Shown piece by piece: positions 7,113 through 62,634 of a stretch of 64,000 nt of DNA; the stretch's first letter is position 1; each line of letters starts with the position of its first letter. This DNA is from Eledone cirrhosa (taxonomy: Eukaryota). The stretch covers positions 38,812,001 through 38,876,000 of the forward strand of contig OZ024740.1 in the NCBI GenBank assembly GCA_964016885.1. The letters run 5' to 3'. The notes beneath the pieces were generated by a model, which made no database searches, was not told the DNA's origin, and worked only from the letters and a program-made list of their open reading frames with translations. The translations under genes were made by a program, and so were the position numbers.

Positions 7113-7665
7113 ATAAAATATTAAACAAATAATGAATAAACAATAAGACAGTTCCTTATATTAAACAAAAAAAGTTCATTATTTAACGATCGTTTCTAGG
7201 ATATATATGTGTTAGAATTGGCATGCATATTCAACAGATCTATGTACAAAATTATACAAAATTATACAAACTATCAAGATTAAATATACATACCAACACA
7301 TATATACGCCGTCTTCAGAAATATTTCTGAAGACGGCGTATATATGTGTTGGTATGTATATTTAATCTTGATAGTTTGTATAATTTTGTATAATTTTGTA
7401 CATAGATCTGTTGAATATGCATGCCAATTCTAACACATATATATCCTAGAAACGATCGTTAAATAATGAACTTTTTTTGTTTAATATAAGGAACTGTCTT
7501 ATTGTTTATTCATTATTTGTTTAATATTTTATCTTGACTCTGTATACCGTTTATCTTTCACCGAAAGTGATTTTTCATTACATCTCTTCTTTCCATGATA
7601 TCCGGAATACATTGAGTTCTTCATACGGATTGGACACTACCGTAAACTCTTGTAGATTTATCTAC
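7113..7665. mobile_element. Solo fold-back PLE family B terminal-repeat unit: spacerless 420-bp palindrome (7113-7532) plus a ~130-bp extension
   Basis: Arms are reverse complements about 7322/7323 (CTTCAGAAAT|ATTTCTGAAG). The sequence is homologous to 14535-14745 and 8711-9060. It is flanked by (TA)n. Confidence 0.88.
7322..7470 (+). ncRNA. Family B hammerhead ribozyme copy with the stem I 5' arm shortened to ~5 bp (mirror copy on - strand at 7175-7323)
   Basis: CTGAAGA 7327-7333; GAAA 7449-7452; C-GATC-G-TT; AAATAATGAA. Confidence 0.65.
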
Positions 7666-8710
7666 ATATATATAAATATATATATATATATATATATATA
7701 TAAATATATATATATATATATATATAAATATATATATATATATATATATATATAAATATATATATATATATATAAATATATATATATATATATATATAAA
7801 TATATATATATAAAAATATATAAATATATATATATATATATATATAAATATATATATATAAAAATATATAAATATATATATATATATATATATATATATA
7901 TATATATAAATATATATATATATATATAAATATATATATATATATATATATAAATATATATATATATATATAAATATATATATATATATATAAATATATA
8001 TATATATAAATATATATATATATAAATATATATAAATATAAATATATATATATATATATATATAAATATATATATATATATATATATATATATATATATA
8101 TAAATATATAAATATATATATATATAAATATATATATATATATATATAAATATATATATATATATATATAAATATATATATATATATATAAATATATATA
8201 TATATATATAAATATATAAATATATATATAAATATATAAATATATATATATAAATATATAAATATATATATAAATATATAAATATATATATATATATATA
8301 AATATATAAATATATATATATAAATATATATATACAAATATATATATATAAATATAAATATATAAATATATATATATATAAATATATATATATATATATA
8401 AATATATAAATATATATATATATAAATATATATATATAAATATATATATATATATATATAAATATATAAATATATATATATATAAATATATATATAAATA
8501 TATAAATATATATATATATAAATATATATATATAAATATATATAAATATATATATATAAATATATATAAATATATATATATAAATATATATATATATAAA
8601 TATATATATATAAATATATAAATATATATATATATATATATAAATATATATATATATATATATAAATATATAAATATATATATAAATATATAAATATATA
8701 TATAAATATA
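7666..8710. repeat. ~1-kb (TA)n/TAAA array
   Basis: Directly visible. Confidence 0.96.
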
Positions 8711-8908
8711 TGTAGATAAATCTACCAAGAGTTTACGGTAGTGTCCAATCCGTATGAAGAACTCAATGTATTCCGGATATCATGGAAAGAAGAGATGTAA
8801 TGAAAAATCACTTTCGGTGAAAGATAAACGGAATACAGAGTCAAGATAAAATATTAAACAAATAATGAATAAAACAATGAAACAGTTCCTTATATTAAAC
8901 AAAAAAAG

Positions 8909-9063
8909 TTCATTATTTAACGATCGTTTCTAGGATATATATGTGTTAGAATTGGCATGCATATTCAACAGATCTATGTACAAAATTATACAAAATTATA
9001 CAAACTATCAAGATTAAATATACATACCAAACACACATATATGCCGTCTTCAGAAATAGTGAA
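8909..9063 (-). ncRNA. Inverted copy of the family B hammerhead ribozyme
   Basis: Reverse complement of 14530-14684 with one substitution in stem I. Confidence 0.72.
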
Positions 9064-9100
9064 ATATATTTATTGATAATAACAACAATTCAAAATTTCA

Positions 9101-59884: not shown

Positions 59885-60066
59885 TTAACCATTTAGTATT
59901 TACATTATATATACTATTATATTTTCACAGTGACTATCGCGTATAATATTGAATTTATAAGATTTTGATATTTATTTTGAGAACAATACCTTAACATCAG
60001 TATGAGCAGCTGGTTTGAACAGAAAGAAGTGGAGAATTCTGACCAGTTTAAATGCTAAAGGGTTAA
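59885..60066 (+). mobile_element. Diverged piggyBac-like MITE copy
   Basis: TTAACCATTTAGTATTTAC...TAAATGCTAAAGGGTTAA. Confidence 0.8.
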
Positions 60067-60692
60067 TGTCTAATTAATAAAGTATAAATATTTTTGTGCA
60101 TATGTGTATGAGTATACAGGCATGCATTGAGCATTTATGCATACCTGTGCATATATAAAATAACCATATGTAACTTTATACACATATATAAGAATTAACT
60201 TTATTCCTAAGGTCTAAGCAATGAATGCCATTTTGTATTGACAGATAAGATTTGAATTAAAACTCAACAGTTAACAGATAGCTGGAACAAAATTAACTAC
60301 AGGCAGGACAGATATTTTACATATTTCGTGAGGGCAGACACAACTAATTATGCTGTGGTATTTAATATAATTAATTTAAATACAGAAGATGCATATAATT
60401 AATGTTAGAATTAGAATTAAAGTAACTTCTAGATCTAGTACTACTGTGTGATAGTGTTGTCATTGTTTAACCCTAGTTCAAGCTAGATCAAGCAAACATT
60501 GGATGAAAGTATTCCAGGTTTGACCATCCTGTTTGTTCACTTTGCATATTAGGATTTACAATGTCCAATGTGTCTCTGCTTTTTTACAATAGTAGGTAGT
60601 GATTTGAGGAGGTTTAGCTGATATTTCTAGCCAATCAGACAACTATGAAACAGCTCGTTTGTTGATTCATCTATACGGAGTAGTCCTCTCAA

Positions 60693-61058
60693 TACATGCA
60701 TACATACATACATACATACATACATACATGGCTGCAAGCATGCATGCATTCATACATACATGGAGGAACTCCGTCGGTTACGACGATGAGTGTTCCAGTT
60801 GATCCGATCAACGGAACAGCCTGCTTCTGAAATTAACATGCAAGTGGCTGAGCATTCCACAGACACACTTACCCTTTACGTAGTTCTCAGTGTGACACAG
60901 TGTGTGACAAGACTAGTCTTTTGAACGACAGGTCAACTTATTACTTTATACGGGACAAATAAAGTGTCTTGCTCAAGGACACAACGCACTGCTGGGAATT
61001 GAACTCACTATCTTACGATTGTGAACTGAATACCCTAACCACAAAGCTACATGCCTTC
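60693..61058 (-). mobile_element. tRNA-CORE SINE, third tail type, with (TATG)n tail
   Basis: Head and CORE on the - strand at 60958-61058; distinct tail containing the hairpin GTTCCAGTTGATC-C-GATCAACGGAAC; (CATA)n at 60693-60760. Confidence 0.8.
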
Positions 61059-62510
61059 ACACATACATGCATGGCAAAGTCATTAGACTTTGCATTCCAG
61101 CTCTCTGCATTCCGAGTTCAAATCCTACTACAGTCAACTTTGCCTTTCATCCTGTCAAGGTTGATTAAAAAGTACCAGTCAAATACTGAGGTTGATTCTT
61201 CTTCGATATTTGTTTCTCTCCTCCTCTCCTTCTCTGGAAGAAATCAGCTGTGTTTAGACCTGGAAAGGAGATGGGCTCAGCCAGGTTTTAAATTTCCAAG
61301 ACACGCCATATAACTCCACCAGACACGCCTTATAACTCCACCAGAAGTTACATACACACACACAAATATATATATATATATATATATATATATATATGGT
61401 GAAATGTATTCTGATTTTGTGGAGAATATATATATATATTGATCGTTATCAAGTATTTTGTTTTAAACTTTTTATTAAATTTAATAAGATACTCAACGAA
61501 TTATGTAATCTTACTCTCAGTGTAGATTGTCTCTAGTCTTAAGCTTTGATATATCTTAAAGCACACTTATGTGTGTATGAACGAATATATTTCATTCTCT
61601 GAATTCTATCTTGAGCTATTTTTAGAGACATGATATATGTTTGATTTCGTATCATTTATGACATCCTTTACTTTGAAAGTAATATATATATATATATATA
61701 TATATATATATATATATATATGCCTCTAAGTATGTATTATATGATAATGAGAGTAGCATATATAGTAGTAGGAAGCAGGTTCCGCTAAACTCTGCCTAAA
61801 GAGAAGTTTAAACAATTATGAAACTATCCTATATCTACAAATTAGCCGACCTACTTGTAAGTTGATGAACATTTGCTGAGTAACTTTAGCTGTTATTTCT
61901 CAGTAGAATGAGAAGTAAAGCTGAAGTTGATAAAGTAAATCAACCAGAAATTAGTTTTTGTCACCATTGTTGTTTGGCTGAGAAGTTGGAATTTATCCCC
62001 ATGATTTATTTCTCATTGTGTTCTTTTGTTTGTTTGAAACAGCAAAAACAAAAAATTTATCACAGTATACAATTCCAATGAAGAACAAACGAAATAGTAA
62101 GGAGGAAAGAAAGAAAGAAAGTATCACGTATGATGTAACAGAAATATTCTCAACTTCCCTATCACTAAAATCTTCAGTCTATCTATATCCAAGGTTAGGT
62201 GTAGAAATAAGGAGAATATTACACGAGCCATCACCGGAAATATTTGAATAACATCTTTAAAAAAAGCTACAAATAGACTACATGTAAACACCAAAATAAC
62301 TGAACCAACAAAGGAGCCTCTGCATAATTGTGCAACCTGCTAGAATCAGCAGTTAAATTTCTCTGAAATCACTACTTACCGTTTTTTTTTGTTTTTTTTT
62401 TTAAAGAGAAAGAAATGTTCTACACATACTAGGTCTGATAAAATAAAGAACCGGATGGTCATGGCTGGAAAGTCTTTCATTGTGTGTGTGTGTATATATA
62501 TATATATATA

Positions 62511-62634
62511 TTAATTTAACAATGAAAAAATAATAAAGTCAAGTTATTTTACCTATTCATATCGTTGAGTTCTATCTACGGTACGGACACTACCACAAGG
62601 GTAAACCGCATTGGAAAAGAAATGTATATATATA
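62511..62634 (+). mobile_element. TA-flanked fragment homologous to the family B PLE terminal extension
   Basis: TTGAGTTCT-atc-TACGG-tac-GGACACTACC-acaagg-GTAAAC resembles TTGAGTTCT-tca-TACGG-att-GGACACTACC-GTAAAC at 7612-7647. Confidence 0.6.

Follow-up and report, generated by a model that had tools for sequence, protein, structure and literature searches.

Predicted twin bulged hairpins in the leaders of Hydra-clade Penelope-like elements of Eledone cirrhosa, a likely RNA site for two reverse transcription starts

Results

Penelope-like elements in the window

The stretch analysed here (the window) comprises 64,000 nucleotides of Eledone cirrhosa DNA (GCA_964016885.1, contig OZ024740.1, forward-strand positions 38,812,001–38,876,000) and holds copies of five families of Penelope-like elements (PLEs), which we call families A to D and the fifth family (Table 1). 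The window translations of families A and B encode a reverse transcriptase (RT) with a C-terminal endonuclease. A preliminary description of the window had singled out a nine-nucleotide motif, TYGAGTNCT, as a shared cis signal of otherwise dissimilar elements, and all six of the motif stretches that it listed are present. We found that, by sequence and predicted pairing, the motif supplies the 3′ arm of a small hairpin with a bulge in Hydra-clade PLEs, RCUCY-stem-loop-R-U-H-GAGY-N-CU, that full-length elements carry this hairpin twice (H1 and H2), and that inserts end just 5′ of one or the other. The two hairpins appear to be joined by a helix, P3, and together are likely to serve the RT as a start site for each strand of the target.

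The Hydra clade is described, in the sections of PMC8557442 on which we draw, as combining an RT and, at the C terminus, a GIY-YIG endonuclease, which between them carry RWK-like, DKT, CxCX5C, CxxC and CxH motifs, with a hammerhead ribozyme in the pseudo-long terminal repeat (pLTR), (TA)n targets, and inverted pLTRs with a tail on one side. The elements here have these protein motifs, the pLTR hammerhead, the (TA)n targets, the inverted pLTR and the one-sided tail in common with it. Family B has RWR at residues 37–39 and DKT at 115–117, both motifs recur in family A, and the endonuclease translations of both contain the CxCX5C linker, CxxC and CxH but no CCHH, by eye against section 11 of PMC8557442. 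A hammerhead core with its stems is recognizable by sequence in the pLTRs of families A, B and D; the window copies of family C and the fifth family keep only its 3′ half. Two differences from the published clade concern length: tails here span ~55–140 nt instead of 30–40, and the full-length tandem unit of family B measures 6,643 bp (6.6 kb), with a single 813-residue open reading frame (ORF) for RT plus GIY-YIG-type endonuclease at the C terminus, instead of less than 3 kb. The excess is a long, microsatellite-rich 3′ region, and since PMC8557442 words the length as "generally" under 3 kb, it is not diagnostic. On this sequence evidence we identify the elements as further, new members of the known Hydra clade.

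The predicted structure of the family B protein (mean predicted local distance difference test score 85.6) finds its best fold matches among TERTs; other RTs were matched as well. Pfam gave no match on the truncated PLE ORFs of the window, and the hairpins, in the window as in six full-length leaders, had none in Rfam, which returned microsatellite look-alikes and tRNA-like repeats only. The family B hammerhead (7327–7470, 14530–14684), whose stem II region spans ~115 nt and whose stem III is palindromic, likewise escapes Rfam. Intact family B copies are many, with 150 scored at 99–100% identity, and the family forms head-to-tail arrays with a 6.64-kb period (L121; G000:C6:49528001–49538000). 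Its 3′ region contains ~3 kb of TG/TA microsatellite, present also at window positions 11437–14250.

The motif marks TA-embedded element ends

The window contains seven occurrences of TYGAGTNCT where 1.99 are expected, and 1 of 100 shuffles reached seven; two of the matches, at 27551 and 31990, were absent from the preliminary description, are remote from TA runs and lack a hairpin. Pattern searches of the 3.0-Gb genome found the motif followed within ~30–60 nt by (TA)6 at 41,512 motif starts outside family B, compared with 911 for the reversed pattern, and at 11,996 compared with 619 when families B and C were both excluded (the sides compared are those that list a motif once), a 19- to 45-fold excess. 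The claim of a shared cis signal, downstream of the hammerhead and tied to the ends of the elements, is supported. Family C is the commonest family in the genome-wide listing, and family D accounts for at least 97 pattern matches. Clustering by sequence divides the 144 motif matches near a microsatellite into 40 groups, so the excess is not the effect of one family. Among 29 stretches chosen by position only (290 kb), the motif–TA arrangement was found 22 times, its reversed form never and its reverse complement three times. One unrelated 42-bp satellite (L276–L288; G000:C1, ~1.72 Mb), whose every unit contains the nine-mer and ACTC, supplied 13 of the 100 matches listed in the search for double hairpins.

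For other organisms, 95 loci were picked by protein similarity alone to avoid selection on the motif. Here the strict nine-mer is not enriched on the sense strand (9 sense, 33 antisense), whereas the compensated GCTC/GAGC form of the hairpin does carry over (78 sense, 9 antisense). H1 in the E. cirrhosa genome is ACUC/GAGU and not GCUC/GAGC. Distinct 130-nt windows before the ORF contain the motif in 35 of 45 cases, twice in 25 of them, and on the antisense strand in 4. Viral contigs yielded no relatives. Hydra-type elements were also encountered in contigs filed under bacterial genome records (L259–L275), probably through host contamination.

Two bulged hairpins precede the ORF

The upstream partner of the motif is ACTC, and the inner bases pair into a stem that leaves TY as a bulge; at least two further stem pairs are present in 104 of the 144 near-junction matches. 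The GAGTT/AACTC stem proposed earlier for family B is missing in 11 of 30 copies, and the motif pairs with RCTC upstream instead of AACTC downstream. Full-length elements have the order hammerhead–H1–H2–ATG. H2, detected by pattern search in read-through copies of the own-genome families, lies ~20–58 nt 5′ of the ATG. The motif sits inside the tail and 5′ of the ORF, and on the latter ground a coding role was rejected. A tandem unit of family C without an ORF (~257 nt; L291:1092–1818) has kept H1, P3, H2 and the first codons while the 5′ half of the hammerhead is absent.

Covariation was assessed on 90 of 98 hairpins from 49 families below 65% identity (16 from the own genome, 33 from others), the 5′ arm being located as the nearest CTC alone. 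Watson–Crick pairs form at the four stem positions in 72, 77, 49 and 41 of the 90, compared with shuffled means of 52.9, 49.8, 25.8 and 23.9, and the observed counts were reached in none of 10,000 shuffles. In leave-one-out counts over the protein-picked loci (R 60/60, U 60/60, G 60/61, A 60/63, G 60/61, C 60/61, U 60/64) the consensus is R-U-H-G-A-G-Y-N-C-U-N-U. The bulged U is invariant and preceded by a purine, which belongs to a Watson–Crick pair in 77 of 90 hairpins. The covariation spans loops of 4 to ~110 nt; the flanking segments are at background identity (0.29), and motif and pairing are kept in elements whose proteins are 30–45% identical. Unconstrained folding of 35 families (14 of the 49 being left out) recovered H1 in 24, H2 in 26 and P3 in 23.

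Among six published Hydra consensus sequences inspected by eye, three have clear copies of the hairpin (H1 and H2 in Hydra-1_Ajap, H1 in Hydra-2_Ajap and Hydra-2_Amil), two have degenerate copies and one stops before the hairpin. In the non-Hydra PLE loci looked at, which were few (nine), the hairpin is absent after the hammerhead in all three with a visible hammerhead (L140, L164, L166). The terms "hairpin", "bulge" and GAGC did not occur in a term search of the main text of PMC8557442, and we found no description of the twin hairpins or of P3 in the open literature that was searched (the relevant parts of PMC8557442, PMC4209133 and bioRxiv 10.64898/2026.07.22.740005; subscription papers lay outside the scope) or in Rfam. 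The preliminary description had likewise not recognized the signal as one already described.

An intron around H2 of family B, with a preference for unspliced RNA, is unsupported: the loop folds as a hairpin and the loops of other families are short. No intron joint appeared in the contigs of four runs of unknown kind, which speaks neither for nor against the idea. Several stubs (L018, L019, L020, L036, L040 and window 62563–62565) break off within ~20 nt before the motif, as if reverse transcription from the long end had stalled at H1.

Insert ends fall within a few nucleotides 5′ of a hairpin

TA junctions lie within −15 to +2 of the base of H1 or H2 in 181 of 185 cases in the own genome and 15 of 16 elsewhere, compared with 14–17% if they were placed uniformly. 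They fall ~2–10 nt 5′ of H1, giving a short end, or of H2, giving a long end. With exact anchoring, the start of the TA run is placed at about −6 to −10, the last templated base being at −2 to −7, with a TA-like overlap of 2–5 nt at the junction; the interval is the same at both hairpins, irrespective of loop length. The 185 own-genome junctions come from 356 alignments, of which 76 read through and 95 stopped away from TA (31 at a hairpin, 64 elsewhere), and 23 of the 94 double-hairpin elements were unusable as references. Inverted inserts have one long and one short end in 57 of 58 cases, and in 12 of 12 among the position-picked stretches. In the window the short ends are at 3903–3913, 7120, 14747 and 50207, and the long ends at 348, 7665, 8712 and 50403.

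This geometry changes the role that the preliminary description gave to the nine-mer, namely to fix an end 45–60 nt downstream. The short end lies just 5′ of the hairpin to which the motif belongs, and H2 sets the long end, whose distance is 8.6 ± 1.3 nt from the H2 base but 48.9 ± 11.7 nt when measured from the motif (14 references, including several of one family). The 45–60 nt are the H1–H2 spacing, that is, the known PLE "tail", by which long and short ends differ; as a distance to TA the value is too narrow, since it is ~62 nt in family A and ~22–78 nt across families. H2 itself is absent from inserted long ends.

Two of the listed elements proved to be something else. The island at 62565, taken to be a dissimilar element, is a collapsed copy of family D, a sister of B, in which the 5′ arm of H1 has been lost. 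The looser fifth case (61487–61498, minus strand) is on the wrong strand and is not the hairpin; hammerhead and RT of that element read on the plus strand of the window, where a degenerate arm is found. Most copies of family C do meet (TA)n as described, but the window copy runs into TATA and then (GA)n. In C1, between 211.9 and 213.0 Mb, a D stub follows an A-like tail at four sites that share their flanks (L332–L335), likely a segmental duplication.

A predicted helix joins the two hairpins

The 28 nt that follow H1 are predicted to pair with the 28 nt that follow H2. Across 49 families, cognate segments reach −11.3 kcal/mol compared with −6.5 for non-cognate ones, an excess unreached in 20,000 permutations that holds in each subset. 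The register of P3 is 19–24 in 40 of 49 families (21% expected). At fixed register in a MAFFT alignment of 29 of the 49 families, 47.8% of positions pair compared with 38.7%, a value reached in none of 500 shuffles. Compared directly, the two segments form no direct repeat (similarity 0.27 versus 0.28).

Discussion

A likely RNA site for two RT starts

We consider it likely, with a probability of about two in three, that the hairpin pair joined by P3 is the RNA site at which the RT-endonuclease binds and from which two RT starts are made, one for each nicked strand of (TA)n. The element's own protein would bind H1 and H2 in the sense RNA, in which the fold would act, and would nick the target. 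Each target 3′ end could then anneal to the UA-rich bases just 5′ of a hairpin, so that reverse transcription would be primed twice, once per nicked strand, and the two cDNAs would presumably be joined head to head. A cDNA that starts at the long end does not include H2, which must therefore act in the template or donor DNA. In family A and in the long copy of family B, the short-ended arm exceeds the long-ended one in length and thus cannot be a fold-back copy of it, and the long-ended arm contains tail sequence absent from the other. Both ends are therefore template-primed, and a fold-back source is excluded for either.

The proposal fits, by analogy, what is reported for the Poseidon PLE PAc, in which RT starts at two internal sites bounding the tail, both target strands are extended, targets are AT-rich and hammerhead cleavage is dispensable (Frangieh 2024, PMC11167929, in the parts relevant here). 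The shared points are the two internal starts that bound the tail, the extension of both strands, the AT-rich targets and a hammerhead cleavage that would be unneeded. PAc belongs to another clade and starts in an AC-rich stem-loop within the ORF, and a twin hairpin or consensus signal is not reported in those parts of PMC11167929. Our proposal also differs from the self-priming antisense model as outlined in PMC3846280.

Several observations weigh against this reading. The search patterns partly selected the own-genome counts of long ends, though not those of short ends, nor the data from position-picked stretches or from other organisms. P3 is irregular: a slide of −2 is nearly as good (46.9%), self-duplexes of the two segments are stable too (−9.1 and −8.2), and the own partner ranked below the top ten in 8 of 49 families. 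Folding energy does not identify the acting strand. The antisense gain of P3 over non-cognate segments is identical (−4.8), A-C exceed G-U oppositions 92 to 60 in ungapped P3, stable tetraloops number 5 sense and 2 antisense among 24, and pair probabilities favour the sense strand only slightly (0.67/0.61 versus 0.60/0.51). Of the pre-ORF windows of other organisms, 10 of 45 have no motif; some contain variants in which it is broken, among them a flipped central pair in L261 and L265, and Hydra-1_Obim and Hydra-1_Crog have the degenerate copies mentioned above. Finally, both arms copy the same stretch of template, so that a single RNA would require strand displacement, or else two RNAs would be used.

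Cleavage, leader and DNA-element explanations

The hairpins could instead be cleavage marks, the GIY-YIG endonuclease or a host nuclease cutting just 5′ of each, either to generate 3′ ends of RNA or to resolve a DNA intermediate. This would yield the same junction geometry and would suit the failure of folding to decide the strand; moreover, the tail has been ascribed to endonuclease resolution (Craig 2021, PMC8557442), and the Drosophila virilis Penelope endonuclease required the tail for cleavage according to Frangieh 2024 (PMC11167929), both as far as the cited sections go. We nevertheless regard it as rather unlikely: in the PAc experiments of PMC11167929, RT starts at internal sites of RNA that has not been cut, and lengthening the 3′ end left the product unshifted, the TA-like junction overlap is that expected for primer annealing, and the strict pairing of one long with one short end calls for extra assumptions.

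We give little credence to the idea that the structure is mainly an element for translation or packaging (an operator, a ribosome entry site or a cis-preference signal) that adjoins insert ends only because its flanks are unpaired and UA-rich. H2 is indeed close to the ATG, and the bases at −8 to −3 of H2 are mostly unpaired (0.69) and AU-rich. However, the leaders hold many other AU-rich stretches and yet almost all TA junctions use these two, at the same offset for any loop length, and the ORF-less family C unit retains the structure.

The nine-mer, which may resemble NK-class homeodomain sites, might also act as double-stranded DNA, as a homeodomain site or the core promoter that the preliminary description had allowed for, but we hold this very improbable. 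The nine-mer is conserved in sequence, and PLE promoters have been placed in the pLTR (PMC8557442, PMC3846280, in the passages concerned). Such a site fits poorly with stems that covary with their partner across loops of 4 to ~110 nt and with GAGC compensated by GCTC in other organisms, and it leaves the junction positions unexplained. Chance, or neutral descent from one ancestor without present function, hardly deserves consideration, being already largely refuted by the covariation, P3 and leave-one-out results: the excess in the window alone is modest and a few large families dominate the genome counts, but the flanks have drifted to background identity while motif and pairing persist. Two further candidates, an RNA polymerase III B box and splice signals, fitted poorly and were dropped.

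Resemblances and significance

In L1 twin priming both target strands prime on the RNA, and in telomerase, template boundary elements are RNA structures that bound the copying of an internal template. The two-start reading shares with these the priming by both strands and the bounding of copying by RNA structure, and the family B model matches TERTs best; it differs in having two priming sites at set positions, arms with overlapping sequence and a structure located 3′ of the segment that is copied. An arginine sandwich is described for A22-U23-G26-A27 of HIV TAR and for the two-U bulge of 7SK ASM3 (PMC6189040, in the part on these RNAs). R-U-H-G-A resembles them as a paired purine and a bulged U followed by G-C and A-U pairs, and a bulged pyrimidine after a Watson–Crick paired base is what we found (R 60/60, U 60/60; 77/90). 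The likeness to TAR and 7SK as given there is one of secondary structure alone and implies no homology, the bulge here belongs to the hairpin's 3′ strand, and the A-U pair is flipped in two families. Recognition of the bulge by an arginine sandwich, for which R35, R37, R579 and R581 are candidate conserved arginines, is speculative, as is a protein dimer on a pseudo-twofold RNA; a homodimer prediction for residues 1–490, run without an alignment, scored 0.00 and gives no verdict.

More tentatively still, the Hydra leader might be a transferable, pseudo-twofold symmetric RNA module ~120 nt long, in which two TAR-like bulged hairpins flank one helix and hold two telomerase-related RT-endonucleases, so that both TA strands are primed at fixed, different sites within one complex; we think this possible but doubtful. 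If true, it would account for the head-to-head repeats seen in Penelope elements and for their tail on one side. Template choice, inverted ends and the one-sided tail are treated as an open question in the sections of PMC11167929 and PMC8557442 cited here, and PLEs are the closest retroelement relatives of telomerase. The structure predicts two RT starts at base level and supplies an existing in vitro assay with a minimal RNA and a set of mutations, and the hairpins provide a boundary marker for annotating tens of thousands of TA-embedded stubs in the E. cirrhosa genome.

Feature map and other repeats

Table 1. Positions of PLE features in the window
Feature	Position	Strand	Remarks
Family A inverted arm	348–989	−	Long end ~348 against (TA)n; 432–989 matches 3353–3913 inverted, 97%
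Family A P3, 5′ strand	394–402	−	Partner strand after H2 in full-length copies
Family A H1	410–432	−	5′ arm 429–432, UC bulge, motif 410–418
Inverted copy of family A hammerhead motif (type I)	483–544	−	By eye against hammerhead core; no Rfam match
Family A ORF, Hydra-type RT and C-terminal GIY-YIG	952–2446	+	5′-truncated, frameshifted
Family A 3′ pLTR	3353–3913	+	Hammerhead 3799–3860; stops at short end just before H1
Family B palindromic stub	7120–7665	+	Short end ~7120 (− arm), long end ~7665
Family B stub hammerheads	7175–7318; 7327–7470	−; +	
Family B H1	7537–7620	+	Long inserted stem; motif 7612–7620
Family B P3, 5′ strand	7623–7636	+	TACGG..GGACA of the preliminary description
Family B inverted arm	8712–9100	−	Long end 8712, H1 8758–8841, hammerhead 8909–9053
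Family B ORF, Hydra-type RT and endonuclease	9083–10978	+	5′-truncated; 630 of ~813 residues
Family B 3′ pLTR	14493–14747	+	Hammerhead 14530–14684; stops at short end, without motif
Family C palindromic stub	50207–50403	+	Short end 50207; long end ~50403 before (GA)n
Family C stub hammerhead 3′ halves	50224–50246; 50281–50303	−; +	
Family C H1	50329–50355	+	Motif 50347–50355
Fifth family	61398–61682	+ (sense)	Hammerhead 3′ half 61401–61428, degenerate hairpin 3′ arm 61611–61619, long end ~61682
Family D (sister of B) collapsed insert	62511–62626	+	Inverted short-end arm 62511–62563 fused directly to motif 62565–62573

Other repeats share the window. An RTE-like long interspersed nuclear element with endonuclease, RT and a PHD-type finger occupies 42030–45032, 16394–17478 and 24327–25870, as one long ORF of 1000 residues plus truncated relatives. 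A 489-bp unit is repeated seven times in tandem at 38171–41637, with 98% identity and flanking TA runs, and no hammerhead core was found in these units. Copies of a tRNA-derived short interspersed nuclear element family lie at 50606–50935, 23507–23839, 36114–36434 and 58924–59090.

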